64,000 nucleotides of DNA. Origin: Eimeria praecox (lineage: Eukaryota). The stretch is from the NCBI GenBank assembly GCA_963920595.1, contig OY986948.1, positions 2,170,001-2,234,000 of the forward strand. Direction: 5' to 3'. The position numbers and the translations under genes are program-made. The notes below the pieces were generated by a model. The model saw nothing but the letters and a program-made list of their open reading frames with translations, did no database searches and was not told the origin of the DNA. Shown piece after piece: positions 1-63,800 of the stretch. Within the stretch, counting starts at the first letter, position 1, and each line of letters opens with the position of its first letter.

Positions 1-3000
1 GGAAGAAGTATATCCTTCAAATCAGATCGAAGACATCTGTAAACTCACCAATCCAAGAAGCCCGTCATCAAAGAGCGAGTTTAACCCATACACCAATGCA
101 TGTGAATCTGTGTAGAAGGATAGATAAGGAAACCACTGGCAGATATCATCTCCCACACTTGCGGGAAGGCTCACTTTCTGCAAGTAAGACACCGCACAAA
201 CCCCATCCAAGCCAAGAATACAATGCAATGCATGCATCCGTATGAATCTGCTAGTTCAACAATGCAGCAATGCATATAATAAATCCTTCGAATCAAATCA
301 AAAATATTAGATAAACTCGCCGATACAATAAACCCAGCGAAATGGTAGTTCAGTGGATTTTACACCACTGCATGGGAATCTGTGTCGAAGGACAAGGAAG
401 ACACTGACACATGCCATCTCTCTCGCATGGGCAAAAACGCTTACTGGCTGCAAGTCAGTCATCGCTCATGCTCCATCCAAGCCAAAATACAATGCAGTGC
501 ATGCCCTTCAAAGAATATGCCTGTTCAAGCATGCAGCAGTGCAGGAAGAAGTATATCCTTCAAATCAGATCAAAGACATTTGTAAACTCACCAATCCAAG
601 AAGCCCGTCGAAAAGCGAGTTTAACCCATACACCAATGTATGTGAATCTGCGTCGAAGGATAGATAAGGAAACCACTGGCAGATATATCATCTCCTACAC
701 TTGCGGGAAGGCTCACTCTCTGCAAGTAAGAAAGCGCACAAACCCCATCCAATACAAAAATACAATGCAATGCATGCGGAGGTATGAATCTGCCAGTTCA
801 ACAATGCAGCAGTGCATCTAATAAATCCTTCGAATCAGATCAAAGATAAACTCGCCGATACAATAAACAAACCAAAATGCTAGTTTTAGCGGATTTTATA
901 CCACTGCATGTGAAACTTTGTCGAAGGAGAATGTAGCCACTGGCACAGGCCATGTCTATCCCGCATGGGCAAAAAAAAAGCTTACTGCCTGGAAGTCATT
1001 CATCGCGTAAACACCATCCAAGCCAAAATACAATGCAGTGCATCCCTTCCTAAGAATCTGGCTGTTCAAGGGTGCAGCAATGCATCTAATAAAACCTTCA
1101 AATCAGATCAAAAATATTAGATAAACTCGGCGATACAATAAACCCACCGAAATGGTAGTTTCAGTGGATTCTACAACCACTGCATGTTAATCTGTGTCGA
1201 AGGACAAAGAAGCCACTACCACATGCCATATTTATCTCTTATGGCGAAAAGAGCTTACTCCCTGCAAGCCATTCATCGCACAAACCCCATCCAAGCCAAA
1301 ATACAATGCAATGCATGCCCTTCTGTGAACCTGCCCGTTCAACCATGCAGTAATGCATCAAGAAATAAATCCATCGTATCAGATCAAAAATATTAGTTAA
1401 CTCGCCGATACAATAAACCCACCGAAATGTCCGTTCGGGCGACGTTCGCAACCACTACGTGTGAATCTGTATCGAAGGACTAGGAAGACACTACCACATG
1501 TTATATCTCTCTCGCATGCGCAAAAGGACCTTACTGTCTGCAAGCCATTGACCGCTCAAACCCCACCCAATACAAAAATACAATGCAATGCATGCTTCCA
1601 AAGAATCTGGCTGTTCAAGCATGCAGCAATGCATCTAATAAATCTTTCAAATCAGATCAAAAATACTAGTTAACTCGCCCATACAAAAAAACATACCAAA
1701 ATCCTAGTTTCAGTGGATTCTACAACCACTGCATGTTAATCTGTGTTGACGGACAAAGAAGCCACTGGCACTTGTCATATTTATCTCGCATGGGCAAAAG
1801 GAGCTTACGTCCTGCAAGCCATTCATCGCACAAACCCCATCCAAGCCAAAATACAATGCAGTGCATGCATTCCTATAAATATGCCTGTCAAGCACGCAGC
1901 AGTGCAGGAAGAAGTATATCCTTCAAATCAGATCGAAGACATCTGTAAACTCACCAATCCAAGAAGCCCGTCATCAAAGAGCGAGTTTAACCCATACACC
2001 AATGCATGTGAATCTGTGTAGAAGGATAGATAAGGAAACCACTGGCAGATATCATCTCCCACACTTGCGGGGAAGGCTCACTTTCTGCAAGTAAGACACC
2101 GCACAAACCCCATCCAATACAAAAATACATATGAATATGCCTGTTCAAGCATGCAGCAGTGCATCAAGAAGTATATCCTTCAAATCCGATCAAGGACATC
2201 TGTAAACTCACCAATCCAAGAAGCCCGTCGAAAAGCGAGTTTAACCCATACATCAATGCATGTGAGTCTGTGTAGAAGGATAGATAAGGAAACCACTGGC
2301 TGATTTCATCTCCCACACGTGCGGGGAAGGCTCACTTTCTGCAATTACGACACCGCACAAGCCACATCCAATACAAAAATACAATGCAATGCATGCATAG
2401 GTATGAATCTGCCAGTTCAACAATGCAGCAATGCATCTAATAAATCCTTCGAATCAGATCAAAAATATTAGTCAACTCGCCCATACAAAAAACACACCAA
2501 AATCCTAGTTTCAGTGGATTCTACAACCACTGAATGTTAATCTGTGTCGAAGGACAAAGAAGCCACTGGCACATGTCATATTTATCTCTTATGGCGAAAA
2601 GAGCTTACTCCCTGCAAGCCATTCATCGCACAAACCCCATCCAAGCCAAAATACAATGCAATGCATGTCCTTCTGTGAACCTGTCCGTTCAAGCACGCAG
2701 CAATGCATCAAGAAGTAAATCCGTCGTATCAGATCAAAAATATTAGTTATCTCGCCGATACAATAAACCCAAAGAAATGCCCGTTCCGGCGACGTTCGCA
2801 ACCACTACGTGTGAATCTGTATCGAAGGACTAGGAAGACACTACCACATGTTATATCTCTCTCGCATGCGCAAAAGGACCTTACTGTCTGCAAGCCATTG
2901 ACCGCTCAAACCCCACCCAATACAAAAATACAATGCAATGCATGCTTCCAAAGAATCTGGCTGTTCAAGCATGCAGCAATGCATCTAATAAATCTTTCAA

Positions 3001-7430: not shown

Positions 7431-10400
7431 AGGACTAGGAAGACACTACCACACGTTATATCTCTCACATGGGCAAAAGGAGCTTACTAGCTGCAAGTCA
7501 TTGACCGCTCAAACCCCACCCAATACAAAAAATACAATGCAATGCATGCTTCCAAAGAATCTGGCTGTTCAAGCATGCAGCAATGCATCTAATAAATCCT
7601 TCGAATCAGATCAAAAATATTAGTTAACTCGCCCATACAAAAAACACACCAAAATCCTAGTTTCAGTGGATTCTACAACCACTGCATGCTAATCTGTGCC
7701 GAAGGACAAAGAAGCCACTGGCACATGTCATATTTATCTCGCATGGGCAGAAGGAGCTTACTCCCTGCAAGCCATTCATCGCACAAACCCCATCCAAGTC
7801 AAAATACAATGCAATGCATGCCCTTCTGTGAACCTGCCCGTTCAAGCATGCAGCAATACACCAAGGAATAAATCCGTCGTATTAGATCAAAAATATTAGT
7901 TTACTCGCCGATACAATAAACCCACCGAAACGTCCGTTCGGGCGACTTTCGCACCACTGCGTGCGAATCTGTATCGAAGGACTAGGAAGACACTACCACA
8001 TATTATATCTCTCACATGGGCAAAAGGAACTTACTAGCTGCAAGTGATTGATCGCGCAAACCCCATCCAATACAAAAATACACTGTCTGTTCAAGCATGC
8101 AGCAATGCATCTAATAAAACCTTCAAATCAGATCGAAAATATTAGCTAACCCGCCCATATAAAAAACACAACAAAGTGCTAATTGCAGCAGATTTTACAC
8201 CCACTGCATGTGAATCGAAGGAGAAGGAAGCCACTGGCAGATATCATCTCGCGCGCTTGAGGGTAAAGCTCACTTTCTGCAAGTGAGACATCGCACAAAC
8301 CCCACCCGATACAAAAATACAATTCAATGCATGCCTTTATAGGTATATGCACGCTCAGCGGTGCAGCCGTGGAGCAAGAAACAAATCTGTCGTATCAGAT
8401 TAAAAATATTAGTTAATTCGCCGATACAACAAACCCACAGAAATGCTAGTTTCAGCAAAATTTGCACCACTACATGTGAATATGTGTCGAGGACAAGGAA
8501 GCCACTACCACATGCCATACTTATCGCTGATGCGCAAAGGGAGCTTACTCCCTGCAAGTCATTCATCGCTCAAACCCCACCCACGCCCAAATACAATGCA
8601 ATGCATGCCCTCTGAACCTGCATGTTCAAAGATGCACCAATGCAGCAAGAAGTATAACCTTCAAATCAGATCAAAAATATTAATTAACTTGCCGATACAA
8701 CAAACCCACTGAAATGCTCGTTCCGGCCATTTTTATACCCCTCTATGTGAATCTATGTCGACGGTCAAGGATGCCACTGGCACATTTCATACCTATCTCG
8801 TCTGGGCAAAAAAAATACTTACAACCTGCAAGTCAGTCATCGCTCAAGCCCCATGAAATATAGAAATACAATGTAAAGCATATCCTGTGAACCTGCACGT
8901 TCAAATATGCACCAATACAGCAAAAAATATATCCTTCAAATCAGATCAAAAATATTAATTAACTCGCCAATACAAGAAAGCGACGGAAATGTTAGTTTGA
9001 GCGGAGTCTACATCACCGCATGCCAGTTTGTGTCGACGGACAAGGAAGCCATTGGAACATGCCATCTATCTATCTCCCATGGGCAAAAAGCCTTACTGCC
9101 TGCAAGTCACTCAGCACTCAAACCCGATGCAATACAAAAATACAATGCAATGCATGCCTTTCCAAGAATCTGCCTGTCCAAAGAAGCAGCAGTGCAGCAA
9201 AGAATATATCCCTCAAATCGGATCAAAGGCATCTGTAAACTCACCAATCCAACAAACCCGCCGAAAAGCGGGTTAAAGTCATATACCACTGCATGTGAAT
9301 CTGTGCCTAAGGACAAGGAAGCCACTGGCACACGTCATATCTCTCGAGAATGGGCAAAAAAAGCTTACTCCCTGCAAGCCATTCATCGCACAAACCCCAT
9401 CCAAGCGAAAATACAAAGAAGTGCATTCCTATCACAGATGCAGCAATGCACCTAATAAAGCCTTCGAATCAGATCAAAAATATTAGTTAACTCGCCCATA
9501 CAAAAAACACACCAAAATGCTAGTTCCAGTGGATTCTACACCACTGCATGTGAATCTGGGTCGAAGGACAAGGAAGCCCCTACCACATGTCATATATCTA
9601 TCGCATCGGCAAGAAGAGCTTACTGTCTGCAAGACATTCATTGCTCAAACCCCATCCAACACTAAAATACAACGCAATGCATGGCTTTGTGGATCTTCCC
9701 GGTCCAGGATGCAGCCATGGAAGAACAAGCATGTCCTGCAAATCGGAGCAAAGCTATGTGTAAAATCACCAATCCATGAAACCCACCGGAAAGCGAGTTT
9801 AAGCCATACTGCATGTGAGACTGTGTCGAAGGACAAAGAAGCCACTGGCACATGCCAGATCTATTTCGCATGGGCAAAAACACTTACTACCTGCAAGCCA
9901 GTCATCCCATAAACCCTACCCAATATAAAAATACAATGTAATGCATGCCTCAGAATCTGCCTGTTTAAGGATGCAACAATGTAGCAAGAAATGTATCCTT
10001 CGAATCAGATCAAAAATACTAATTAACTCGCCGAAACAACAAACCAACGGAAATGCTAGTTTCAGCGGATTTCACATCACCGCATGTGAATCTTTGTCGA
10101 AAGACAAGGAATCCATTGACACATGTTATGCCCATCTCTCATCGGCAAAAAAAGCTTACTGCCTGCAAGGCATTCACGGCTCAACTCCCATCCAATACTA
10201 AAGTACAATTCAATGCATGCCTTTCTAGCTATATGCACGCTCATCGATGCAGCCGTGCAGCAAGAAACAAATCCGTCGATCAGAGTAAAAATATTAGATA
10301 ACTCGCCGATACAACAAACGAACGGAAATGCTAGATTCAGCAAATTCTACACCACTGCATGTGAATAAGTGTCGAAGGACAAGGAAGTCGCTGGCACATG

Positions 10401-13400
10401 CCGTATCTATCGCGCATGGGCAAAATGCTTACTTCCTGCAAGTGAAACATAGCTCAAACCCCACCGAAGCCAAAATACAATGCAATGCATGTCCTCTGAA
10501 CCTGCATGTTCAAAGATGCACCAATGCAGCAAGAAACATATCCTTCAAATCAGATCGAAAATTAACTCGCCGATCCAATTAACCCATCGAAATGCTCGTC
10601 CCGGCGATTTTTACACAACTGCAAGTGAATCTGTGTCGATGGACAAGGGAGCCACTGGCGGATGCCATATCTATCTCGCGTGGGCAAAAAGACTTACTAC
10701 CTGCAAGTCAGCCATCGCACAAACCCCAACCAATATAAAAGTACAATGTAATGGATGTCCTCCTGTGAATCTGCACGTTCAAAGATGCACCAATGCAGCA
10801 AGAAATATATCCCCCAAATCGGATCCACAATATTAATTAACTCGCCGATACAACAAAGCGACGGAAATGCTACTTGTAGCAGGTTTTACACAACTGCGTG
10901 CGAATCCGTGTCGACGGCCAAGGAAGCCACTGGAGCACGTCATATCTATCTCGCATGGGCAAAAATAGCTTACTGCCTGAAAGTCATTCAGCACTTAAAC
11001 CCCATCCAATACAAAAATACAATGCAATGCATGCCTTTCTAGAGCCTGCCTGTTCAAAGACGCAGCACTGCAGCAAAGAAGTATATCCTTCAAATCAGAT
11101 CAAAGGCACCTGTAAACTAACTAACCCAACATGCCTGTCGAAAAGCGAGTTTAACCTGTACAGCAATGCATGTGAATCTGTGTCGAAGGATAAGGAAACC
11201 ACTGGCAGATATCATCTCCCACACTTGCGGGGAAGGCTCACTCTCTGCAAGTAAGACACCGCACAAACCCCATCCAAGCCAAGAATACAATGCAATGCAT
11301 GCATTCGTATGAATCTTCCAGTTCAACAATGCAGCAAAGCATCTAATAAATCCTTCGAATCAAATCAAAAATATTAGATAAACTCGGCGATACAATAAAC
11401 CCACCAAAATGCTAGTTTCAGTGGATCTTACACCACTGCATGGGAATCTGTGTCGAAGGATAAGGAAACCACTTCCACATGCTATATCTCGCATGGGCAA
11501 AAGGAGCTTACTCCCTGCAAGGCATTCATCGCTCGAACCCCATCCAATACAAAAATACAATGCAATGCATGCCTTTCTGTGAACTTGCCCGACCCAGGAT
11601 GCAGCTGCACAACAGAGCAAAGTTATGTGTAAACTCACCAATCCATGAAATCCGCCGGAAAGCGAGTTCAAGCCATGCATCACTGCATGTGTGACTCTGT
11701 AGAGGGACAAGGAAGCCATGGGCGCATGTCAAATCTATCTCGCATGGACAAAAAAAACTTACTACCTGCAAGTCATTCATCGCGCAAACCCCATCCAAAG
11801 AAAAATGCAATGTATTGCATGTCTTTCTGTGAACCAGCGCGTTCAAAGGCCCACCAATGCAGCAAGATCAAAAATATTAGTTAACTCGTCGATATAAGAA
11901 ACCAACCGAAATGTTCAGCAGGTTTTACACGACTCCGTGAGAATCTGTGTCGACGGATAAAGAAGGCACTGGAACATGTCATACCTATCTCGCATGGGCA
12001 AAAAAACTTACTGCCTGCAAGGCATTCACCGCTCAAACCCCATCCGATACAAAAATACAATGCAATGCATCCATTTCTAAGAATATGCCTGTTCAATGAT
12101 GCAGCGAAGTAGCAAGGAATATATCCTTCAAATCAGACCAAAGGCATCTGTAAACTCACCAATCCAAGAAACCCGCCGAAAAGCTAGTTTAAGCCATAAA
12201 CCACTGCATGTGAATGTATGTCGAAGGCTAAGGAAGCCTCTGGCCCACGCCAGATCTATATCACATGGACAAAAAAGGCTTACTCCCTGCAAGTCATTCA
12301 TCGCTCAAACCCCACCCAAGACCAAAATACAATGCAGTGCATGCCTTCCTATCAATCTGCCTGTTCAAGGATGCAGCAATGCAGCCAGGAATAAATGCGT
12401 CGAATCAGATCAAAAATATTTGCTAATCTGCTGATAGAAAAAACCCACCGAGATGTCTCTTTCAGCGGATTTTACATCAATGAATTCGAATCGGTGTCGA
12501 GGACAAGCAATCCACTGGCACATGTCAGATCTATCTCCTATGGGCAAAAGGAGCTTACCCGCTGCACGTCATTCATCGCCCAAACCCCAAGCAATATAAA
12601 AATACAATGTAATACATGTCCTTCTGTGAACCAGCACGTTCAAAGATGCACCAATGCAGCAAGAAATATATCCTTCAAATCAGATCAAAAATATTAATTA
12701 ACTCGCCGCTACAACAAGCCGACGGAAATGCTAGTTTCAGAGGATTCTACACCACTGCGTGCGAATCTGTCATGGAAGCCACTGGGACACGTACCTATCT
12801 CGCATGGGCAAAAAAATGCTTACGATCTGCAAGTCATTGATCGCTCAAAATCCATCCAATACAAAAATACAATGCAATGCATGCTTTCCTATGAATCTGC
12901 TTGTTCAAAGACGCAGCAATGCATCAAGAAATAAATCCGTTGTATCAGATCAAAAATATTAGCTAACTCGCAGATACAACAAACATGCCGAAATGCTCGT
13001 TTCAGCGGAATTTGCACCACTGCATGTGAATCTTTGCCGAAGGACAAGGAAGCCACTGGCACATGACATCTCTCTCCTGCAGGGGAAAAAAGCTCTTACT
13101 CCCTGCAAGCCATTCATCGCCCAAAACCCATCCAATACAAAAATAGAAGGCAATGCACGTCTTTGTGAAATTGCCTGTTCAAAGCCCGAGCAGTGGAGCA
13201 AGAAATATATCCTTCAAATCAGATCAAAATTATTTAACTCGCCGATACAACAAACCCACCGACATCCTAGTTCTAGCGGATTTTACATCACTGCATGTGA
13301 ATCTGTGTCGAAGCACAAGGAAGCCACTGGTACATGCCATGTCTATCTCGCATGGGCAAAACAAGCTTACTCCCTGGAAGTCATACAACGCTCAAACCGC

Positions 13401-32600: not shown

Positions 32601-34378
32601 TTATACGACCGGCGAACTGCATTGCTTCCACACACGAATTTCAAGTGTATGAGGTTTCCCCAGTGATCTCCAAGAGTCAACTGCACAAAATTTTGACCGC
32701 ATTATTTTCAACAAAGACATATTCAGATTGTATTCACCACTTCGTCGGTCACATTTCACCCCCTGTTTAATGTCTTTAACAAAAGACGCACGTACTGTAT
32801 GCATACCCAGCGTGCGGGGTTTAATAAAATCCACCACCAGCAGAATGCATTCAAACCCCTATTGGTGTGCCGAACTAAACTGCTAGCATGCGAAAAAAAC
32901 ACTCCTGTGCTCAGAGTACCATTCACAGCGCTCCCTGAAATAAGGGCCAGGCAACTTATCATGTCTATTCTGCTTCACGTGACGCACTGCCTGTAATTAG
33001 ACAGCTTGTAGACAAAACTGAACATTAGGATGTCAGGAGGATATCGTGCACTGCCAAGCTCCCTCCCAAAGGTTTGTATTCACGCTACTTGACGTGCTAA
33101 CCTCTTTACGCAACAGTGATGTCACACATAACAGTTCTCCTAAGCTTCCCATGATCGATCTGGCTCACATCCTTCATGTTCAGCATGCCGCTTGAATGCA
33201 AATGGAGCATGCACTTAGAACTGTAGAAAGCTTCATACCTGTCTACAGCCCACTAGGGGTATGCCTACGACAAAACCTAAACGATTGGTTTGAAATGCAT
33301 ATCTAGCAGATGTAATTCGCATAGTACGCCACTGAGAGTGTAATGTGCCCATGCATTTGCCACTGATTAAAATAAAATGGCGTACATCCTGTTTTACCCC
33401 ACAGCGCGAAACGCCAAACGTTGCTGCCCCTGGCAGAAAGGCCATATATGCAGGCGAAAAGGCACACCAACAGCAGCCGTGGTCTTCAACCCGAAATTTT
33501 CAGGGACTGCTGCAGCTCTGCGGCGCCAGCCAAACATGCCCTCAGCATCCTGGCGCCCTCCACTACCTCAAGTGCCCCGCGCATGCCATACATCCCATAG
33601 CAGTCAACGCAGAGGCTCTGATTTTGTGAGCTGCTACTAATTGAGCATCACCTAGTAGCTGTTTCTACCTTAGCCATCTCGAAATATCCATCTCGAGATG
33701 GTTGTTCCTTCCCTGTAGGATTGCTGAAGTAGTGCTATGCACGCACTGCCTGAAGGTAATGCAGCAAGCAGGCGCATTTGCGAATATCCTCGAACATCCC
33801 TTCGAAACACCGGTACAATACTTCAGTAATTCCAAGCTTTTCACACCGTGCCAGGTCAAGTGTAGTGCCCGAGTACCTGCCCATGTCGAGTATGATGACG
33901 GTTGGAACTCACCGCCTGCACGGTATATCCCTAGTAGCGCGACACTCACCACTGTAGTAAAGACACCCCTGTGATCCAATCAATGAAGTGTGAAGGCAGC
34001 ATGGCATCAACCACCACGATGCGCACTTGCTGAATGCCGAGAAACGCCACCCTGTCACAAAGGCAAGCTCTCAAAGTAAAACTAGGCTTTGTCACCGCCG
34101 CAAGGCATTCACCCCTGCGTTGGATGCACACGACTTGCATAATTCTTGCAAATCTATCCGGATGGATGATGGCGCCTGCGATGCTGTACCTGCGCAGTCT
34201 GCCCACACTGCCCCTAAAGCCAGTCACACCTAAATGCTTTACAGGGTGGAAGGGACGGACTTGCTGCAAGTATCATTAGACCCTACGATCCGTGGTGTCA
34301 ATATAATGCTTGCAAGTCCAGAGGCCACACTGTCCCGAAGCTACCCTAATGAAGAAAGATGAGTAAACCTGAACACTG

Positions 34379-34429
<51 letters not shown>

Positions 34430-49400: not shown

Positions 49401-52400
49401 TTGCTGCAAATTACAGAACGGTCGAGCAAAACTAGTAGGATACGTAAGAGAGGCTCAATACCGACTGCTTAGGCTGCCCAATAGAGCGCATCCTGAGCAC
49501 CCCACGCAGATGCACAACGCCTAACTCCCGTGTGTCATTAAACACAGACACAATATAACTTTGTAACTTCGCTCCGCCACTGGCCACTCCACTGCCTCCC
49601 ACACGCACTGGCTGCAAATCAGCAATTCTCCGCGAGCTTCTAGCTGGCCGAGTCCATGTACCACCCACCTTGCACAGACATTCAAGGGGAGACCGAACAC
49701 AAACTTCTGCCCACATTGCATTCCAAGCAATCGAGAAGCACGCAAAGAGTCGCAATGCAAACATCAGCAGACACCCAAACTCAAATCCACCACAAAACAC
49801 TCCACTGCTCCCGAGGCACGCCTCATCACTCCGGCCCTAAACGCACTCCCTATAAATTAGAAAACTCACCAAGCATGTCCAGTTGCTTGGTTTTGTCTTT
49901 CACTTTCCACACGCTTGCCAGTGGGCGCCCAATACCGCCATGCTATATTAGCATATACAGCACATCTCCCTACACCTAAGTGCGTTAAATCCTTCCCCAC
50001 ACCGCAGGGTCCATGGGGCTTTCCCTTAACTATGTGGCGTACAAGCTGTTCTCCTATAGCTCCAATCCATATTCCTCGATAGAACCCAGGCTTGATCTGC
50101 AAAGGCGCTTAATGCAACACCCAATGCTCCAAACCATCCATGCTGCTTCTAGCCTACACTGCTCAATTTCCAAACACCTCACATACCCACTGCATATCAA
50201 ACGTATGGAACCACTCTTAACTCTGGCCATGAAGGCGCTTCCTTCAAGTACAAAAAGCGTGGACCGCAGTACTTCAAACCATACTACTGCTCCTCCAGGA
50301 CACTACTGCCAACAGCAATACTGCCTTCCCTGTGAAGCACGGATATGTTGAGGTGCAATATGGAGGCCCCCGACTGGTCAGTGGGCTCTTTCATCTTCCG
50401 CCTGTCAACTGGAACCCACGGTCGCTCAAAATAACACTGGGAGGAACTCGTCCTACAATCCAGCCACGTACTGCCTGCAATTTGGGTAATTGACCTACCG
50501 CTGTGACACCGGCATTGATAGACGCGCCAAACGACAGAGATGCAGACAATACTACATTGTGCACGCGCCCTCGGCTCTAGGGACTTATGCTATAACTAGT
50601 TCCGCATCATGGAGCATCATGGAGGCCCTTGGCTAGTGGATGGACTCGACATCTTGCGCCTGTCTAGCGGAACCCATGGTTGCAAGGAATTCTAGTCCAA
50701 CAACCCTGCCACGCACTCCCTGGAGTTACGTCTCGTATATCGGCGCCATTGATGGACGCAGCCACCGACGCGATTGCATGGAATTCTGCCTTATTCGAAT
50801 GCTGGTTTTACATCCGCCGCTGGCGTATAACAACTGATGCACTATTAAGTTCCGTGTCACTGTGGGAGCTCCCCATCGAAGTAGCCTCCCTCCAATTTCG
50901 CAGCAACGCACCGGGTAAAGGCGCATTGTCACTCGTCAGACTTGCTCAGCGCCTATACACAAAGCGCGTATTGGTGATGAGGAGTCACTCAAGATGTATT
51001 ATGGCGAAATTCGTCTGTGCACGCGGGACTTGCAACTCGTCACGCAGCTTCCTGTTTCGGCCAGATATGTTGCGGTGGCAAGACGCAAGCGACCAATGTG
51101 CGCTACCTGTATTGGCCCTGCATGGCAACGTGCACGCCACTGCATGTTCCTGGAGCAAAATGTGAAGACGCCATCTGCTTCCACAATCCAAGAAAACGCA
51201 CCAAAGAAGGCACCAGGCTCTCCGCGTACTAGCCAAAATTGCAGCGATATGGGCTGCGCCCATCCTGCCAGGGAAGCTTAGCTTGATATATGGAATAACA
51301 CTACCACCATCGTGAGGCAGGCCGATAACGCAAGGACTGGCTCTAAAGGCAAAACAGCACCCACGAACCTTGCAGAGCATGTAAACAACGCACTGGAACC
51401 CCATAAATTCATCTAATTTAACTGGCACCAATTCAAAGCAGTGAGCATACTAAACCCTGCAAGTGACCCAACACGACATAACACACATCTCAGTCAAGCG
51501 CCACGTGACAAGGTGTGACAGTAAAATGGAAGCTGAGAGCAGCCCACTGCAGCCTGAGCGCATTTCTCCCCCCAGCCGCAACTGAGATGTTTACCGCTCC
51601 AAGCAATCTCTTCCTAATTAATATCATCAATGGCCAGTCCGTAAACTATCCTACTACACCAACTCTCGTCCGCCGCCTACCTGGACGCCATAGCCCACCA
51701 ACCAAAAGCTTAGCCTCTCGCATGCACACTCTGTATCGAGAGCATCGAGCATATCTAGCTGTCTACATTAGTCTAACTCCTAAACTCGATGGTTACATGA
51801 TGGGCTACATAGCATCTCTCTCCCACACACCCGAACAATCATGATGGGATTACTACTAGATGCCCAGCAGCTTCCAGATGCATCGATCATGCCTAGCGCT
51901 ACCATTCAGTCTCCCTCAAGAGCGACACTGACGGCCCCAACCTCCACGGTTGCCCACGACGACGCACCGTTTGCAATGTAAAGCGCCCTACTCACCTACC
52001 CTCATGCTCCCATGCAAGCAATCTAGTCGCAAGGGCAGCATCATCAAACACAATCAACTGCGCCAGTGGCCACTCCACAAATCAGTCATTGCGCCATTTC
52101 TACAGAATATCAACGCCGACAGCATCTCAAGCTACCCAATTTACTCCACCATCCACCGTCTTCACGATAATCAGCGCCCACGAGGCAGATACCTGCCGCA
52201 CACCTCAACGCACGTCACGTAAGCTGGCCGATTCACAGCTCAACCTCGCACACTCACATCCTACGCATTAGAAACACACGGAACATGTCAGTGTGCCTCA
52301 TTTACTTCAACGTTCCTAAAAGACAAAATAAATACCGTTCGCCGCAGGGCTGTCTGCCAAACCGTGCACACACCCCACGCAGATCCTGAATACCAAAAAC

Positions 52401-55400
52401 CGTTTGATAGCAAACCCCCACGCTTTCGTCAAGCCAGCAGGCTGGCGCCGCCAGCACTGGAACAAACTACTGAAGCCAGTCTAACCAGCACCCCCTCAGT
52501 ATCATACGTAAAAAACACTAATCCAGCCTGTCTGACCGCCCCACCCAGCCTTACATCAACCCTTCAAAAGTAAAAAATAACCCACGATCAAATTCGCAAT
52601 ACGACACTCCCCACGCAATCCACAAAGATGCAGCACACACTAGTGATATATGCCGCTGCTCCCCTCCATGCAGCAGGCTCAATAGGAAAACATCAATTGA
52701 CTCATAAACTCAACTCCGGCCATGGCAAACCCAACATACCAACCACTAACATGCACTCATTAGCAATTAAAAACCTATCCGTTAAACCTAAACTCCCCAT
52801 GCATCCCAATATCAACCCCGAACGAGATGGGCCAGCCACCGCGATCCTCATCACGCAGCCCAACACAGCGCATCCAACGCACTCCACAAAGATCCAACAT
52901 GCATAGACAATGCATTGCACTTCTCTAACCAGCAGAGTCGCAACCCCCAAATCTACCAAAACACATAACTCTGCTCAGCCAAAGAACAGACCAGAACGCA
53001 CGTCCTGTGGCCCAACACTCAATCTCGAACAGCGAAATCCTGTAGAATCAAACCATCTAGCGTGTCTACATGCAATATTCATTCCAACACACAATCCATA
53101 GAATACGCAACGGGCACCAAACGCAGGTCTCCTCAAATATGCTGTACAAAGCAATAAGCGTACTCAAAGCACAAACACAGCGGCTTCGGGATCGCACTCT
53201 GTTCATATATGCTGCATTGTCAGGGCGCCAAGCAATAGCGCAACCGCCCCACCCACCCAACTAAAGCACTGAAGCCTGCAAGCATCTGCCTACAGCATGG
53301 AGTCCCTATATATTAAAATTGCATCGCCCGTGCAGTACGCCCTATAGTGCACAGCAATATTCGTAGGTTATACGCACCAAACATGTCTCACCGCGTGATG
53401 CAGCGGTTCATTCTCCTACCCACATTCCATACGAAAGTAAGCGCGTCCCACAAAAAAAACGTTAGGGGATGCCCACCCACAGTGCACCCAACCCCCGGCC
53501 ATAAGCACGTGAAGGGCCTCATCCGCATACAGCTGTGATCTCCTCCAAATCATCAGATTCGTCAGACAGCCCAACAGACCCCATCAAACGTACTCCGCAA
53601 AGACCCAACATATACTGTCAATGCACTGCACTTCTCTAACAAGCACACTCGCAACCCTAAGATCTACCAGGTCATATAACTCAGCTCAAGCAAAGATCAC
53701 ACCAGAACACAAGCTCTGCGGGCCAGCACTCAATCTCAACGGGCACCAAACGCAGGTCTCCTCAAATGCGTTGTACAAAGAAATAAGCATACTCAAAGCA
53801 CATACCGCGGCCTCGGCATTGGACTTCATTCACGTATGCACCAAAGTCACAGCGCCAACCACTAGCAAAACCGACGAACAAGCCCTAAACCCAAAACCCT
53901 CCAAACCTCTGCGCAGGACACAATATATAGGCAGTGCATGTTCTCTGCAATGCACCCTCTACAGCAATATTCGTTTAGCTCATACGCACCAAGCATGTCT
54001 AACCGCCTGATACTGTGGTTAAGTCTACTATACGCATTTTACAAGATAGTAAACGCGCACAAGGAAAAACAGTTCGCGGATGTCCACGCACAGTGCACCC
54101 AAACCCACCCTACAAACACGTGAAGAACCTGATTCGCAAACGCCAATGCTCGCCTCCAATAACCAGTGTCCCAACTGCAACCAACTGCAACTTTACCAAA
54201 CCTTCGCACTCAAATACGCCTACCGCCGAACCACAGGGAAACCTCTAAAACGCACTTCCTACGAATCCCACCGTATACAAACCTGCAACATATTCCAATG
54301 TCCTTCAATAATACGCATAGCGTAAACCAAGTAAACGCACACAAGGAAAAACAGTTCGCGGATGTCCACGCGCAGTGCACCCAAACCCGCCCTACAAACA
54401 CGTGAAGAACCTGATTCTCAAACGCCAATGCTCGCCTCCAAGCACCAGTGTCCCAACTGCAACTTTACCAAACCTTCGCACTCAAATACGCCTACCGCCG
54501 AGCCACAGGGAAACCTCTAAAACGCACTTCCTACGAATCCCACCGTATACAAACCTGCAACATATTCCAATGTCCTTCAATAATACGCATAGCGTAAACC
54601 AAGTAAACGCACACAAGGAAAGACAGTTCGCGGATGTCCACGCGCAGTGCACCCAAACCCGCCCTACAAACACGTGAAGAACCTGATTCGCAAATGCCAA
54701 TGCTCGCCTCCAAGCACCAGTGTCCCAACTGCAACTTTACCAAGCCTTCGCACTCAAATACGCCTACCGCCGAACCACAGGGAAACCTCTAAAACGCACT
54801 TCCTACGAATCCCACCGTATACAAACCTGCAACATATTCCAATGTCCTTCAATAATACGCATAGCGTAAACCAAGTAAACGCACACAAGGAAAAACAGTT
54901 CGCGGATGTACACGCGCAGTGCACCCAAACCCGCCCTACAAACACGTGAAGAACCTGATTCTCAAACGCCAATGCTCGCCTCCAAGCACCAGTGTCCCAA
55001 CTGCAACTTTACCAAACCTTCGCACTCAAATACGCCTACCGCCGAGCCACAGGGAAACCTCTAAAACGCACTTCCTACGAATCCCACCGTATACAAACCT
55101 GCAACATATTCCAATGTCCTTCAATAATACGCATAGCGTAAACCAAGTAAACGCACACAAGGAAAGACAGTTCGCGGATGTCCACGCGCAGTGCACCTAA
55201 ACCCGCCCTACAAACACGTGAAGAACCTGATTCGCAAATGCCAATGCTCGCCTCCAAGCACCAGTGTCCCAACTGCAACTTTACCAAGCCTTCGCACTCA
55301 AATACGCCTACCGCCGAACCACAGGGAAACCTCTAAAACGCACTTCCTACGAATCCCACCGTATACAAACCTGCAACATATTCCAATGTCCTTCAATAAT

Positions 55401-58400
55401 ACGCATAGCGTAAACCAGCAGGTTGCCTCCCAGACACACCAACACAGCGCTGCCCATTCACCGCAACAACAAACCGCGCTTCAGCCAACTCCGCCACTGA
55501 CGACTCCACAGCCCATAGACCACTAAATGCACAGCCTACAAATTAAATACACCAAAATAACTAATCGGCAAATTTACCCCTAAGTCCATCATACACAAAA
55601 TATATAACCCTCAATACAGGACTGCTTGTCAAACGCCCCATCATAGCACATCCCGCCAAGCAAGCAAACACGAAAAAAACCGCACTTAGCACTTAGCACT
55701 TAGCAAAGTCCTATCCTCCAGCCGGCACAGTCAAGTCGCCTAAATTAGCAAGCATCCGCACTCAAATCCTCCACACCACTCCGACACTCAAACATTAACA
55801 CGCACTTTCTGCAAATCAGGAGCGCACCGAACGTTGAACGGAATTCAATCTAACGATCACCCCCTCAGCAACATGCGTAAAAAACACTCATCCAGCATGT
55901 CTAACTGCCACACTCACCCTGGCATCAACCCTTCACAAGATAAGTGATGGACGAGAGAAAAGTAGCCTAGCATCGAATTCGCAATACGACACGCCCCACG
56001 TAATCCACAAAGATGCAGCACATCCTATTGATATATGCCGCTGCTTCCCTCAATGCAGCAGGGTCAATAGGAAAACACTTGTTCAGTCCCGCGCTCAGCT
56101 CCCGCTCTCGCGAAACCACGTCCAACAAACCAGCCAATAATATGCACTCCTTAGCAATTAAAAACCTATCGGTTAAACCTAACGTCGTTGGGGAGGTGGA
56201 TATTAGGGTGCATGGGGAGATGTGCCAGCCACCGTGATCCTTGTCAAGCAGGCCAACACAGCGCATCCAACGCACTCCACAAAGATCCAGCATGTATCCT
56301 CAATGCATTGCATTTCTCTAGCCAGCAGAGTCGCAACCCTAAAATCTGACAAAACACGTAACTCAGCTCAACCAAAAGAACAGACCAAAACGCACCTTCT
56401 GTGGCCCAACACTCAATCTCGAACAGGCAAATCCTGTAGAATCAAACCTATCTAGCGTGCCTAAATGCAATATTCTCTCCTACACAAACAAAACCATAAC
56501 ATATGCAACGCGAACCAAACGCAGGTCTCCTCAAATGCGTTGTACAAGGCAACAAGCGTACTCAAAGCACATACACTGCGACTTCCCCATTAGGCTTCGT
56601 TCATACATGGTGCATAGACACACAGCCAAGCAATACCAAAACCGCCCAGCAAGCAGAACTAAACCACTTCGCCTCCAAAGCGCTCTCTAGAATACGCACT
56701 CCCTATATATTAAAATCGCATAGCCCGTGCATTACGTCATCTAGCGCCCAGCAATATTCGTTTAGTTCATACGCACCAAACATGTCTAACCGCCAGATAC
56801 TGTGGTTAAGTCTACTATACGCATTTCACAAGATAGTAAACGCACACAAGGAAAAACAGTTCGCGGATGTCCACGCGCAGTGCACCCAAACCCACCCTAC
56901 AAACACGTGAAGAACCTGATTCGCAAACGCCAATGCTCGCCTCCAATCACCAGTGTCCCAACTGCAACTTTACCAAACCTTCGCACTCAAATACGCCTAC
57001 CGCCGAACCACAGGGAAACCTCTAAAACGCACTTCCTACGAATCCCACCGTATACAAACCTGCAACATATTCCAATGTCCTTCAATAATACGCATAGCGT
57101 AAACCAAGTAAACGCACACAAGGAAAAACAGTTCGCGGATGTACACGCGCAGTGCACCCAAACCCGCCCTACAAACACGTGAAGAACCTGATTCTCAAAC
57201 GCCAATGCTCGCCTCCAAGCACCAGTGTCCCAACTGCAACTTTACCAAACCTTCGCACTCAAATACGCCTACCGCCGAGCCACAGGGAAACCTCTAAAAC
57301 GCACTTCCTACGAATCCCACCGTATACAAACCTGCAACATATTCCAATGTCCTTCAATAATACGCATAGCGTAAACCAAGTAAACGCACACAAGGAAAGA
57401 CAGTTCGCGGATGTCCACGCGCAGTGCACCCAAACCCGCCCTACAAACACGTGAAGAACCTGATTCGCAAATGCCAATGCTCGCCTCCAAGCACCAGTGT
57501 CCCAACTGCAACTTTACCAAGCCTTCGCACTCAAATACGCCTACCGCCGAACCACAGGGAAACCTCTAAAACGCACTTCCTACGAATCCCACCGTATACA
57601 AACCTGCAACATATTCCAATGTCCTTCAATAATACGCATAGCGTAAACCAGCAGGTTGCCTCCCAGACACACCAACACAGCGCTGCCTATTCACCGCAAC
57701 AACAAACCGCGCTTCAGCCAACTCCGCCACTGACGACTCCACAACCCATAGACCACTAAATGCACAGCCTACAAATTAAATACACCAAAATACCTAATCG
57801 GCAAATTTACCCCTAAGTCCATCATACACAAAATATATAGCCCTCAATACAGGACTGCTTGTAAAACGCCCCATCGTAGCACATCCCGCCAAGCAGGCAA
57901 ACACGAACAAAACCGCACTTACCAAAGTCCTATCCTCCAGCCGGCACAGTCAAGTCGCCTAAATTAGCAAGCATCCCCACCCAAATCCAGACGCCCCCAA
58001 TCAAACGCTCCACCTGACACTCTAGCAGCCAAACCCACCTCCTACAAATTAAAAATACGAAAATAATAATTAACCGGCTCATTTATCCCTATACCCGCCA
58101 TACACAAAATATATAGCCCTCAATACACCACAATGCTTGTCAAACGCCCCACCATAGGGCATCCCATCGAAAAAAAGGGGGAAGTCGTATTCCCCTAAGG
58201 TACTCCTACCCTCCAGTCGGCACAGTCAAGTCGCCTACGTTAGCAAGCATCCGCACTCAAATCCTCCACACCACCCCGACACTCTAACATTAACACGCAC
58301 TTCCTACAAAACAGAAGCGCACCGAGCAGCTCTAAACGGAATTCACTCTAACGAGCACCCCCTCACCATCATACATATAAAAACACTCATCCAGCATGTC

Positions 58401-61400
58401 TAACGAGAAAAAATGACCCAGGATCAAAGTCGCAATACGACACTCCCCACGCAATCCACAAAGATGCAGCACAAACTAGTGATATATGCCGCTGCTCCCC
58501 TCCCCCCCCCCCTCCCCCCTGCAGCAGGCTCAATAGGAAAACATTAGTTGACTCATACACGCTACTCCCGCCCTGGCAAGTCCAGCATACCAACCCCTAA
58601 CATGCACTCATTAGCAATTAAAAACCTATCTGTTAAACCTAACCTCCCCATGCATCCCAATATCAACCCTCCGAACGAGATGGGCCAGCCACCGCGATCC
58701 TCGTCACGCAGCCCAACCCAGCGCATCCAACGCACTCCACAAAGATCCAACGTGCATCGACAATGCATTGCACTTCTCTAGCCAGCAGAGTCGATACCCC
58801 CAAATCTACCAAAACACATAACTCTGCTCAACCACAGAACAGACCAAAAGGCATGTCCTCTGGCCCAACACTCAATCTCGAACAGGCAAATCCTGTAGAA
58901 TCAAACCTATCTAGCGTGCCCAAATACAATATCCACCCCAACACAAACATTCCATAAAATACGCAACGGCAGCTCCCCTCAAATACGTCGTACAAGGCAA
59001 TAAGCGTACTCAAACCACATACGCAGCTGCTTCCCCATTACGCCTCGTTCATAAATGCTGCATTGTCACAGCGCCAAGCAATAACACAATCGCCCAGCCC
59101 ACCCAATTAAAACACTTAAGCCTGCAAAACACTGTATACAGCAACGCCAATCGTAAATAATCGGATAAAATATTCCAACCTCTACCATACACGAAGTAGA
59201 CAGCGACCACAAAGGCGATGTTTGCCAGGGAGCCCATCAAAGCTCACCCCACAATGCCAAAGAACATTGTCATAACTCCCTATCGGACTGTTCCTCTACA
59301 AGCAGCGGAGTCCCAACATCGACATTAGCAGACGCCCCCAATCAAACGATCCACCAACCGCCTGACACTCTAGTAGCCAAACCCACATCCTACAAATTAA
59401 AAATACGAAAATAATAATTAACCGGCTCATTTATCCCTATAGCCGCCATACACAAAATATATAGCCCTCAATACACCACAATGCTTGTCAAACGCCCCAC
59501 CATAGGGCAACCCATCGAAAAAAAGGGGGAAGTCGTATTCCCCTAAGGTACTCCTACCCTCCAGTCGGCACAGTCAAGTCGCCTACGTTAGCAAGCATCC
59601 GCACTCAAATCCTCCACACCACCCCGACACTCAAACGTCAACACGCACTTCCTACAAAACAGAAGCGCAACGAGCAGCTCCAAACGGAATTCAGTCTAAC
59701 AATCACCCACTCAGGATCACAGGAAGAAACACTCATCCAGCATCTCTACCCGCCCCACTCACCCTTACATCAACCGTTCACAAGATAAACAATGGACAAG
59801 AGAAAAAATGACCCAGGATCTAATTCGCAATACGACACTCCCCACGTAATCCATACGCATAAATCGTGAATACCAAAGGTCCACATCACCAAAATCTAAC
59901 GGCCCAAGTTGCACTACACAACTGCACAGATCACACCGCAGCTTCCAAAGCGCACTGTCTGAAAAGCAAAGGCGCCATCCCCAGAAAGTTAATTCAGGCA
60001 GCACGCCTACACAGTTCACTTTCTCGGCATCCATCCCCCCAAAATTGCCAGTGGACACCCAATATCGCCATGCTGTATTAACATGTACAGCACATCTCCG
60101 CTATACTGCTATATTAACATATACAGCACATCTCCGTACACCTTAAGTGCACTAAATCTCTCCTCGCACCGCAGGGTCCATGGGGCTTTCCCTCAACTAT
60201 GGTACGTACAACCTGTTGTGCTATAGCTTCAATCCATATTCCTCGATACAGCCCAGACTTGATATCCACAGATGCTTAATGCAACACCCAATGCTCTAAA
60301 CCATCTGTGATGCCCCCTAGCGTACCCGCACACAGCCGAATTTCCAAACACCTCACATACCCACTGCATATCAAACGTGTACAGCCGCTCTTAACTCTGA
60401 TCATGAAAGCATTTCCTCCGACACGCGCTCTCTACAAATCACGAGCGCACCGAGCATCTATAACCGAAAGCCACTCTAACGATCACCCCCTCAGCAAAAT
60501 ACGTAAAAAACACTCATCCAGCATCTCTAACCACCCCACTCACCCTTACATCAAGCCTTCATAAGGCAAACAACGGACAAAACCAAATTCGCAATACGAC
60601 ACTCCCCACGCAATCCACAAAGATGCAGCACATACTAATGACATATACCGCTGCTTCCCCTCCCCATGCAGCAGGCTCAATAGGAAAACATTGGTTGCCC
60701 CATACATTCTACTCCCGCCCTGGCAAGGCCAACAAGCCAACCCCCCACATGCACTCATTAGCAATTAAAAACCTATCCGTTAAACCTAACCTCCCCATGC
60801 ATCCCAATATCAACCCTCCGAACGAGATGGGCCAGCCACCGCGATCCTCGTCACGCAGCGCATCCAACGCACTCCACAAAGATCCAACATGCATAGAGAA
60901 TGCATTGCACTTCTCTAGCCAGCAGAGTCGCAACCCCCAAATCTACCAAAACACATAACTCAGCTCAACCAAAGAACAGACCAGAACGCACGTCCTGTGG
61001 CCCAACACTCAATCTCGAACAGGCAAATCCTGTAGAAACAAACCTATCCAGCGTGCCCAAATACAATATCCACCCCAACACAAACATTCCATAAAATACG
61101 CAACGGGAACCACAATCAGCTCCCCTCACATACGTTGTACAAAGCAATAAGCGTACTCAAAGCACATACACAGCTGCTTCCCCATTACGCCTCGTCCATA
61201 AATGCTGCATTGTCACAGCGCCAAGCAATAACACAATCGCCCCGCCCACCCAATCAAAACACTTAAACCTGCAAAATTCTGTATACAGCAACGCCAATCG
61301 TAAGCAATGGGACAAAATATGCCAACCTCTATCATACACAAAGTAGATAGAGACCACAAAAGCGTTGTTTGCCAGAGACCCCATCAAAGCTCACCCCACA

Positions 61401-63800
61401 ATGCAGAAGAACATTAAGAATGTCATAACTCCCTATCGGACTGCTCCTCTACAAGCAGCGGAGTCCCAACATGGACATTAGCAGACGCCCCCAACCAAAC
61501 GATCCACCAACCGCCTGACGCTCTAGTAGCCAAACCCACATCCTACAAATTAAAAATACGAAAATAATAATTAACCGGATCATTTACCCCTATGCCCATC
61601 ATACACAAAATATATAAACCTGAATACAGGACTGCTTGTCAAACACCCCATCACAGTGCATCCCATCGAAAAAAAAGAAGCCGCATTCCCCTAAAGTATT
61701 GCTATCCTCCAGCCGGCACAGTCACGTCGCCTCACGCTAACAAGCATCCGCACCCAAAACCTCCACACAACTCCGCCAATCAACCTTTAACACGCACTTC
61801 CTACAAATCACACGCGCACCGAGCACCTCTAGACGGAATTCAGTCCAACAATCACCCCCTCATCATCATACGCAAAAAACACTCATCGAGCAGGCCAAAA
61901 CCCCCACACTCTCCCTTGACGCCAACCCCCCCACAAGATAAACAATGGACAAGAGAAAAAATGACCCAGGATCTAATTCGCAATACGTCACTCCCCACGT
62001 AATCCATACGCATAAATCGTGAATACCAAAGGTCCCCAACACCAAAATCTAACAGCCCAAGTTGCACTACACAACTGCACAGATAACACCGCGGCTTCCA
62101 AAGCGCACTGGCTGAAAAGCAAAGGCGCCATCCCCAGGAAGTTAATTCATGAAGCAAGCCTAGATAGTTCACTTTCTCGGCATCCATCCCCACACGCTTG
62201 CCAGTGGACACCCAATATCGGCATGCTATATTAGCATATACAGCACATCTCCGTACACCTTAAGTGCACTAAATCTTTCCTCGCACCGCAGGGGGCATGG
62301 GCATACTCCCTAGCTGCGTGACGCACGTTCTGTTGTCCTATAGCTTCAATCCATATTCCTCGATACAGCCCAGACTTGATCTCCACAGATGCTTAATGCA
62401 ACACCCAATGCTCTAAACCATCTGTGATGTTCCTAGCGTGCCCGCACACAGCCGAATTTCCAAACACCTCACATGCCCAGACTTGTTTTCCACAGATGCT
62501 TAATGCAACACCCAATGCTCTAAACCATCTGTGATGTTCCTAGCGTGCCCGCACACAGCCGAATTTCCAAGCACCTCACATGCCCGCTGCATATCAAACG
62601 TGTGCAGCCGCTCTTAACTCTGACCACGGACGCATTCCCTCTAACACGGGCTCCCCAGAAATGACGAGCACACCGAGCATCTATAACGGGAATCCAGTCC
62701 AACGTTCACCCCTTCAGCAACCTACGTAAAAAACACTCATCCAGCATCTCTAACCGCCCCACTGACCCTGGCATCCACCCTTCACAAGATAAACAACCTA
62801 CGAGACAAAAAATGACCCAGGATCAAAGTCGCAATACGACACTCTCCACGCAATCCACAAAGATGCAGCACATACTAGTCATATATGCCACTGCTCCCCT
62901 CCTCCCCCTCCCCCCATGCAGCAGGCTCAATAGGAAAACATCAGTTGGATCATACACTCTACTCCCGCCCTGGCAAGGCCAACATACCAACCCCTAACAT
63001 GCACTCATTAGCAATTAAAAACCTATCCGTTAAACCTAACCTCCCCATGCATCCCAATATTAACCCCGAACGAGATGGGCCAGCCACCGTGATCCTCATC
63101 AAGCAGCCCGACACAGCGCATCCAACGCACTCCACAAAGATCCAACGTGCATCGACAATGCATTGCACGTCTCTAACCAGCAGAGTCGCTACCCCCAAAT
63201 CTACCAAAACACATAACTCTGCTCAACCAAAGAACAGACCAAAACGCACGTCCTGTGGCCCAACACTCAATCTCGAACAGCGAAATCCTGTAGAATCGAA
63301 CCTATATAGCGTGCCCAAATACAATATCCACCCCAACACAAACATTCCATAAAATACGCAACGGGAACCACAATCAGCTCCCCTCAAATACGTCGTACAA
63401 GGCAATAAGCGTACTCAAAGCACATACACAGCTGCTTCTCCATTACAATTCGTTCATAAATGCTGCATTGTCACAGCGCCAAGCAATAACACAATCGCCC
63501 AGCCCACCCAATCAAAACACTTAAACCTGCAAAATTCTGTATACAGCAACGCCAATCGTAAGCAATGGGACAAAATATGCCAACCTCTATCATACACAAA
63601 GTAGATAGAGACCACAAAAGCGTTGTTTGCCAGAGAACCCATCAAAGCTCACCCCACAATGCAGAAGAACATTAAGAATGTCATAACTCCCTATCGGACT
63701 GTTCCTCTACAAGCAGCGGAAACCCAACACCGACATTAGCAGACGCCCCCAACCAAACGATCCACCAATGACCTGACACTCTAGCAGCCAAACCCACTCC
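175..63800 (-). CDS. Putative giant micro-exon gene (partial, likely open at both window ends) built of about 200 three-nucleotide, one-codon exons; product unknown
   Basis: Minus-strand motif YAG|NNN|GTRNG recurs along the whole window. No triplet in a GTRNG-donor cassette is a stop codon, and the phase-0 concatenation is protein-like. It could be more than one gene; no transcript evidence is available. Confidence 0.75.
17933..52260 (-). CDS. About 117 candidate 3-nt exons in non-repetitive introns. Approximate phase-0 reading: DGALGPQRDDRKNCSVQTGGVQARDSYTTEGLPAVFHSDGERSVDVGDPGNVALRGYDKCQAADAYNKAGGELAAAAAAGVLAKIHVEDPKGYLWLQGRDATRKKKEQRRDKDAVDR
   Basis: Manual scan for plus-strand CNYAC-NNN-CTR. 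Examples: 18119 GAT, 19277 GAC, 20538 AGA, 21344 GAA, 21516/21752/22173 AAA, 22901 GAT, 23926 TGG, 24411 CTA, 24909 GGA, 27629 AAA, 28141 GTG, 29220 GCA, 31778 GCA, 33913 GCG, 34877 AAA, 35018 GAT, 37449 GAT, 37631 GGA, 38496 GAA, 39010 GGC, 41091 TTA, 42375 ACA, 43925 AGA, 45147 GGA, 45436 ACA, 48106 GAT, 49401 CAA, 49609 CCA, 50472 GCA. The list certainly contains some false positives and misses some exons. Confidence 0.65.
29041..29126. repeat. Short direct duplication (~27 bp x2)
   Basis: taggtgtacgaactctagttgtactct at 29041 and taggtgcacgaactctagttgtactct at 29100. Confidence 0.8.
34381..34426. repeat. (GT)23 microsatellite
   Basis: Perfect dinucleotide run seen directly. Confidence 0.98.
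34782..34852. other. Imperfect palindrome / hairpin of about 71 nt
   Basis: gatacaataggccagctgc pairs with gcagctggcctattgtgtc (1 mismatch) around a perfect central palindrome cccagttg|caactggg. Confidence 0.9.
41360..41852. repeat. Two diverged copies of a ~65-bp segment (~41360-41427 and ~41786-41852)
   Basis: cacaccaggggctacaacacctgatatccg...ccaccagtctggtgctatactttccag versus cacaccaggggctacaatacctgatatccg...ccaccagtctagtgcaatactttacag. Confidence 0.8.
45798..45828. repeat. Imperfect (GT)n microsatellite
   Basis: gtgtgtgtatgtgtgtgagtgtgtgtgtgt. Confidence 0.85.
49900..50235. repeat. Outlying copy of a module also found at ~60030-60420 and ~62180-62640
   Basis: Shared sequence: ccagtgg...catgctatattagcatatacagcacatctcc...caccgcagggtccatggggctttccc...caatccatattcctcgata...gcttaatgcaacacccaatgctc. 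Confidence 0.85.
53002..63800 (-). CDS. About 25 candidate 3-nt exons inside the right-hand repeats, mostly Glu/Asp codons (acidic segment)
   Basis: 63798 GGA, 63250 GAC, 62327 AAC, 61798 GAA, 61540 GAT, 60992 GAC, 60210 GTT, 59649 GAA, 59387 GAT, 58301 GAA, 58039 GAG, 57766 GCT, 57577/57305/57033 GAA, 56700 GGA, 56396 AAG, 55806 AAA, 55533 GCT, 55344/55072/54800/54528/54256 GAA, 53002 GAC. Many use TAG acceptors, and spacing is sparser than elsewhere. Confidence 0.5.
54048..55417. repeat. Five near-identical tandem copies of a 272-bp unit
   Basis: aaacgcacttcctacgaatcccaccgtatacaaacctgcaac recurs at an exact 272-bp period (triplets at 54256, 54528, 54800, 55072, 55344). Confidence 0.95.
56835..57650. 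repeat. Three more copies of the 272-bp unit, part of a segmental duplication offset 2233 bp from the first array
   Basis: Same unit at 57033, 57305 and 57577. ORF-track peptides match at 54754/56987 and nearly so at 55191/57424. Confidence 0.93.

Follow-up and report, generated by a model that had tools for sequence, protein, structure and literature searches.

The minus strand of the window (the whole 64,000-nt stretch of DNA analysed here) carries 233 short cassettes of the form YAG-NNN-GTRNG, in each of which an acceptor and a donor enclose a predicted 3-nt, phase-0 exon. As a feature of the DNA this cassette array is real. Judging from its sequence, it probably represents a spliceosomal gene, or two such genes in tandem, whose coding sequence would be joined one codon per exon and which would have grown by duplication of an intron-plus-codon module.

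The cassette array and its splice-site signals

Counts of the strict pattern YAG-N(k)-GTRNG over the whole window gave 233 matches on the minus strand at k = 3 and 10-43 at each of the 30 other spacers from k = 0 to 30, while on the plus strand there were 7 matches at k = 3, within a range over spacers of 1-13. The sharp peak at three bases on one strand only, which the first-pass annotation had expected, is therefore present. Within 17801-52300 there were 137 cassettes at k = 3, compared with 5-21 matches at other spacers and 12.7 +/- 3.5 (maximum 24) in 200 dinucleotide shuffles, and about 13 of these 137 strict matches are expected to be chance. Earlier estimates of about 200 cassettes in all, about 117 in the unique 34 kb and about 8 by chance thus all proved slightly low. 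The spacer counts revealed no excess at 2 or 4 nt, at exon sizes of 6, 9, 12 and 15 nt, or at any other size up to 60 nt. When sites were scored with matrices, which were trained on the same cassettes that they score, there were 117 at k = 3 and 2-11 at each other k from 0 to 60.

Outside the strict pattern, 12 cassettes with an AAG acceptor were found at k = 3 against a background of 4.9. Since the roughly 13 chance matches are offset by a similar number of missed cassettes with AAG acceptors or weaker donors, we put the total at about 230. A relaxed, matrix-scored set, with a threshold at which about 12 chance matches are expected, has 238 members. The outermost triplets of the array, read on the minus strand, lie at 63798-63800 (first) and 175-177 (last), and the cassettes are spaced at a median of 268 bp (quartiles 185-285). 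Strong donors are more numerous on the minus strand (120) than on the plus strand (27); 38 are left after removing the cassettes, which leaves little space for ordinary exons. The window also contains 110 stop-to-stop frames of at least 100 aa, the longest of 210 aa, the majority of them on the plus strand.

All 30 bins of 17801-37800 are covered by DNA contigs from two studies (the window itself may come from one of them), and this part is therefore not an assembly artefact. One DNA run contains two versions of the locus in 17801-37800, about 1.9% apart (380 places in 20 kb), and indels at about half depth are the same in runs of both studies. These two versions reflect either a heterozygous diploid or a two-copy locus.

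The array and its parts are as follows.

175..63800, minus strand: 233 strict cassettes, reaching both ends of the window, with start and stop outside view
53002..63800, minus strand: 5' part with 30 cassettes, arranged in 272-bp tandems and in duplicated multi-exon blocks that are 70-98% alike
48981..52260, minus strand: 11 cassettes, one of them inside a decayed zone
17899..48300, minus strand: non-repeated part, 126 strict cassettes with introns almost all mutually unrelated
175..17625, minus strand: 3' part, 66 tandem units of about 272 bp, with one intron and one triplet per unit

Asp or Glu is encoded by 17 of the 30 triplets of the 5' part (53002..63800). The whole array contains eight near-identical Glu cassettes. 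In the 5' blocks the triplet differs in 9 of 11 cassette pairs with flanks that are 75-90% alike, in all cases non-synonymously, the pairs not being independent of each other. The 11 cassettes at 48981..52260 are linked with the 5' part through those at 50243-49907, which share 79-83% similarity with blocks in that part. The joined triplets of the non-repeated part have a mixed, protein-like composition. We infer an ancient tandem origin for this part, in which the similarity of neighbouring introns is barely above that at other lags (1.98 vs 1.86-1.95). A local duplication of 166 bp (77%) was seen at 41272-41860 in this otherwise non-repeated DNA, and individual introns contain an imperfect 71-bp palindrome (86%, 34782-34852) and a (GT)n microsatellite of 23.5 copies (34381-34427).

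Roughly the final 26 units of this 3' array are organized as higher-order repeats. Between 175 and 7217 these comprise 5 to 12 units, some of them near-identical, and identity peaks at lags of 5, 7 and 12. The 20-triplet example string given in the first-pass annotation corresponds to cassettes 12286 to 7217, in order. There were no matches among metagenome contigs to one motif of the 272-bp unit.

The signals on either side of the triplets look like working U2 splice sites, with a GT donor carrying +5G and a YAG acceptor. The commonest donors in 17801-52300 are GTGCGT, GTGAGT and GTACGT. The acceptor has C at -3 (CAG) in 84% of cases, and GAG acceptors are absent against a background of 6.5. 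Outside the search pattern, donor position +6 is T in 63%, and behind a T-rich stretch A is enriched at -8 and -9 (39% and 35% vs 23% background). Base frequencies alone suggest this putative branch-site A, which sits just 8-9 nt before the intron end. Triplets of the form NAG, which would offer a competing acceptor, are few (3 vs 45 NAA triplets).

Several further observations concern base usage. The usual donor prefers G at -1; in 17801-52300 this position is G in 16 of 137 triplets and A in 61 of 137. Candidate cassettes with a GC donor lie at 62586, 60431, 35711 and 18039. The first two belong to duplicated blocks, and the one at 62586 is a copy of a family whose donor is GT. The non-repeated part has a GC content of about 49%, with the dinucleotides GC, CA and TG at 1.28-1.32 and CG at 0.76, and GATC is the most depleted 4-mer in 17800-48900 (0.63 of expected). 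Such a base composition, together with GTGCG, GTGAG and GTACG donors, may resemble that of coccidian apicomplexans or green algae.

Reading phase, codon-like change and triplet order

When the triplets are read in phase 0, none of the 233 is a stop, compared with 7.75 under a positional null. The other two joins of the triplets contain 11 and 15 stops, the same as in shuffled order, and phases 1 and 2 were rejected on this basis. Taken by itself, the 3' array also lacks stops at offset 2 (0 vs 0.6 expected), so stops do not fix the phase there. The earlier statement that no triplet is a stop thus holds for the strict set, but as an argument for coding it is weaker than it appeared, because splice-site competition partly confounds stop avoidance. 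After CAG, the triplets TAA and TGA create strong competing donors, GTAAG and GTGAG, on the G of the acceptor, and a TAG triplet creates a competing acceptor. In the TA. and TG. boxes none of 12 triplets ends in A, compared with 136 of the 221 other triplets. In boxes that hold no stop, a final A is likewise infrequent among triplets starting with T (2 of 8). Equally strong donors arise from only two TAC triplets and one TGC triplet, the latter being the shadow of a neighbour. The relaxed set of 238 contains a single stop, a TAG at 20063 whose donor lacks +5G.

A codon signature is found in the 3' tandem array. CAG, GT and +5G are kept in all 66 units while the introns drift, and all 65 intervals are 318 bp or shorter, which means that the cassette has been retained in every unit. 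After near-duplicates above 93% had been removed from the 65 aligned units, we compared the remaining 46 with their consensus. Mismatch was 15.4% in intron columns, zero at the CAG, GT and +5G sites, and 41%, 67% and 11% at triplet positions 1, 2 and 3, respectively. Changes were also counted by parsimony on three versions of trees built from intron columns only, which are approximate because the array recombines. Intron columns had a mean of 4.8-5.2 changes (maximum 15-18), the splice dinucleotides none, and triplet positions 1, 2 and 3 had 14-16, 21-24 and 5, respectively. Positions 1 and 2 therefore change 3-5 times as often as intron columns and position 3 at the intron rate, and 31 of 32 and 26 of 27 of the triplet changes alter the amino acid, compared with about 72% expected for random single changes. 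As donor positions +6 and +7, which lie in a T-tract that slips, had 13 changes each, near the count for triplet position 1, a clear excess over every intron column is seen for position 2 alone. A preference of splicing for A might be what constrains position 3. The pattern would arise if new residues are favoured by selection, or if homogenization acts on introns and wobble positions while differences at positions 1 and 2 are maintained. Both readings require a reading frame, and we regard the pattern as a codon signature. The original proposal of one codon per exon at about 1% coding density (699 of 64000 nt, or 1.1% of the window) is partly supported by this codon-position-specific change within the array, a test beyond the reach of the first-pass annotation, while splicing itself remains predicted.

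The order of the triplets carries signals of its own, two of which are localized.

28935..30194, minus strand: consecutive Ala triplets, 6 by the strict pattern or 7 if an AAG acceptor is allowed, one being a synonymous variant
7762..12286, minus strand: 18 triplets in succession whose hydrophobic residues are spaced in a helix-like manner

The introns of the Ala run gave no BLAST match to each other. Among the 126 non-repeated cassettes the longest run of identical residues is 6, compared with 2.45 in shuffles (P 0.0002), and hydrophobic and charged windows gave P values of 0.015 and 0.012, respectively, all three being unadjusted. The helix-like spacing has an unadjusted P of 0.025 at 100 degrees, one of 10 angles tried. 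Adjacent identical residues number 13 vs 8.0 in the strict set (P 0.055), with no significant excess of adjacent synonymous pairs (6 vs 4.1, P 0.22), and the higher-order duplications preserve multi-residue motifs. These signals are modest and moderately favour serial joining of the triplets over a library from which one is picked.

Read from 5' to 3', the predicted product would begin with acidic repeats and continue through a mixed region with two or three Cys, an Ala-rich hydrophobic stretch and a charged stretch to a Gly/Ala/Val-rich amphipathic helix and then Lys-rich five-residue repeats on the C-terminal side. The mixed domain is about 100 residues long. Tentatively, the product might be a modular protein of partly low complexity, most plausibly one that is secreted, lies at the surface or has a structural role, and it may bear some resemblance to a CAP or coccidian SAG domain. 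A resemblance to the thioredoxin fold noticed by eye gained no support from small E. coli profiles. When three versions of the predicted protein were compared with profiles of glutaredoxin, the GST N-domain and thioredoxin, made from 5, 8 and 4 E. coli proteins, respectively, no score rose above -0.7 bits and all lay within the range of 300 shuffles each, although such small profiles miss remote kin.

A gene model and its alternatives

In the model that we propose, about 230 three-base exons would be joined in order and in frame, each contributing one amino acid, and a pre-mRNA of more than 64 kb would yield a message of about 700 nt. Each intron of 100-500 nt would be recognized on its own (intron definition) through its GTRNG donor, branch-like A and YAG acceptor, so that exon size would hardly limit splicing. 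Growth would occur by unequal crossing-over of one intron-plus-codon module or of blocks of modules. After duplication, selection would alter codon positions 1 and 2 while introns are homogenized or drift, and the non-repeated middle would be the oldest part of the gene. As each exon would be one phase-0 codon, its gain, loss or skipping would change one residue without a frameshift, and the dead cassettes in the following list fit such a scheme.

50720..54250, minus strand: decayed zone, 2 strict cassettes in 3.5 kb, with dead copies of live cassette families
58855..58857, minus strand: dead cassette copy in which the YAG acceptor and the GT donor are both lost
53715, 53305 and 52710, minus strand: beginnings of other dead cassette copies
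52213, 51967, 51393, 51201 and 50911: five strong orphan donors in the decayed zone

Cassette density in the decayed zone is 0.57 per kb, compared with 4.05, and a density of about 4 per kb is held over 31 kb. The zone either is a long intron left behind when exons were lost or separates two genes, and given its presence the locus may be two genes. An ATG lies five codons upstream of donor 50911 in phase 0 and, if the zone is a gene boundary, would be a possible start exon. Together with the dead copies, the zone could also indicate that some of the array has fallen out of use. It seems to us quite possible, short of likely, that a gene of this kind writes new protein residue by residue, with the module duplicated, its codon retuned by selection and single-residue combinatorial variants arising through loss or skipping.

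The same cassettes could be used differently. They might form a library from which each transcript takes one or a few triplets, through heavy skipping or the choice of mutually exclusive exons, for insertion into ordinary exons located beyond the window. Since all exons are symmetric any subset would be in frame, the triplets diversify fast, dead copies are tolerated, and the schistosome micro-exon genes (MEGs) make variants by skipping, according to the available portion of one account (PMC4350168). We nevertheless consider a library unlikely, based on the fact that the order is informative (the run of six or seven Ala triplets in unrelated introns, the hydrophobic and charged clusters, the helix-like spacing and the motifs preserved in higher-order duplications) and that the eight near-identical Glu cassettes would provide length and no choice. 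The cassettes might also be spliced into a non-coding RNA, or into a host transcript for intron-encoded RNAs, with 3 nt as the smallest workable spacer between introns. Against this, the window has no match to Rfam, triplet positions 1 and 2 change faster than position 3 with nearly every change altering an amino acid, 53 of the 64 triplets are used and encode all 20 amino acids, and spacers of 2 or 4 nt are not in excess. For these reasons we judge it quite unlikely, even though splice-site competition can account for stop avoidance, a start or stop exon is absent within the window and the small thioredoxin-fold profiles found no match in the predicted protein.

The decayed zone and the four dead cassette copies would also be expected of a once-active gene that is now partly or wholly a pseudogene, or of two genes of which the 5' one is decaying. 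This is very unlikely given that splice sites are kept in 66 of 66 units of the 3' array and that density is steady over 31 kb. Among the 40 variant places listed of 516, none is at a constrained site against 1.4 expected, a comparison without power. A satellite, or intron-like mobile elements inserted head to tail with 3-nt target-site duplications, in either case with nothing translated, we find scarcely credible. About 29 kb of the window is indeed repeated DNA with a 272-bp period or in larger blocks, but 126 cassettes lie in non-repeated DNA with unrelated introns, where only 7 of 125 pairs of adjacent triplets are identical, the invariant columns are splice sites, and a terminal inverted repeat was absent from the one unit inspected. 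Mobile introns of the introner type were considered separately and set aside: within the window, related introns occur only in tandem or in blocks, and the same 7 of 125 pairs applies.

Known micro-exon systems and what the locus would mean

Schistosome MEGs are described as genes with a signal peptide, introns of up to 5 kb and 10-20 symmetric exons; exon size is 3/6-81 nt, in most cases 15 nt, and MEGs appear to be restricted to flatworms (bioRxiv 10.1101/2023.06.21.545858). Exon skipping and high dN/dS are also reported for them (bioRxiv 10.1101/2023.06.21.545858; PMC4350168). The locus described here shares with MEGs, at the DNA level only, a coding region of very small symmetric exons that is hard to annotate, and a fast non-synonymous change, here among paralogous units (the 26 of 27 and 31 of 32 changes above). 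It differs in having about 230 predicted exons, all of 3 nt, and introns with a median of about 260 nt within more than 63 kb in all, and in being built by tandem duplication of an intron-plus-codon unit. The locus would thus work like a MEG, yet the description "extreme MEG" in the first-pass annotation is not supported, as its exon size and number lie outside those of the schistosome family. Another likeness is to spider flagelliform silk, which has tandem exon-intron repeats with homogenized introns that are more alike than the exons. Both are made of repeated exon-plus-intron modules, although silk exons are hundreds to thousands of bases long and those here a single codon.

Isolated micro-exons of 1-3 nt in fungi, plants and animals show that spliceosomes can join 3-nt exons. 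Examples in the available text of the respective reports are 27 exons of the 3-nt class in 26 genes of Coprinopsis (PMC12230235), a 1-nt exon in plant APC11 (PMC8831610) and two 3-nt exons in the lipS gene of Dactylellina (PMC5639578). Unlike the cassettes described here, such micro-exons occur, in the text available, as one or two per gene among ordinary exons and in no long run. The introns that flank plant micro-exons are likely to be removed one after another, and often late, according to the part of the plant report available (PMC8831610); this fits an intron-by-intron model, with the reservation that the plant data concern single micro-exons. Among the mainly non-subscription papers searched in full text, none came up that describes a gene with long runs of 3-nt exons.

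The locus is likely to be a new, extreme variant of micro-exon gene architecture with serial, in-frame coding use. If this is true, it represents a limiting case of the split gene, with more than 200 splicing reactions for about 230 residues. It would become testable how small an exon the spliceosome can handle in series, in what order and how faithfully hundreds of 3-nt exons are spliced, and whether duplicating exons can generate new protein sequence when the module is a single codon. Young (tandem), intermediate (block) and old (unrelated introns) stages lie next to each other in the window. Neither ORF finders nor gene predictors nor seed-based spliced aligners can see genes with one-codon exons, and in other eukaryotes unmapped transcripts and apparent gene deserts may hide more such genes.
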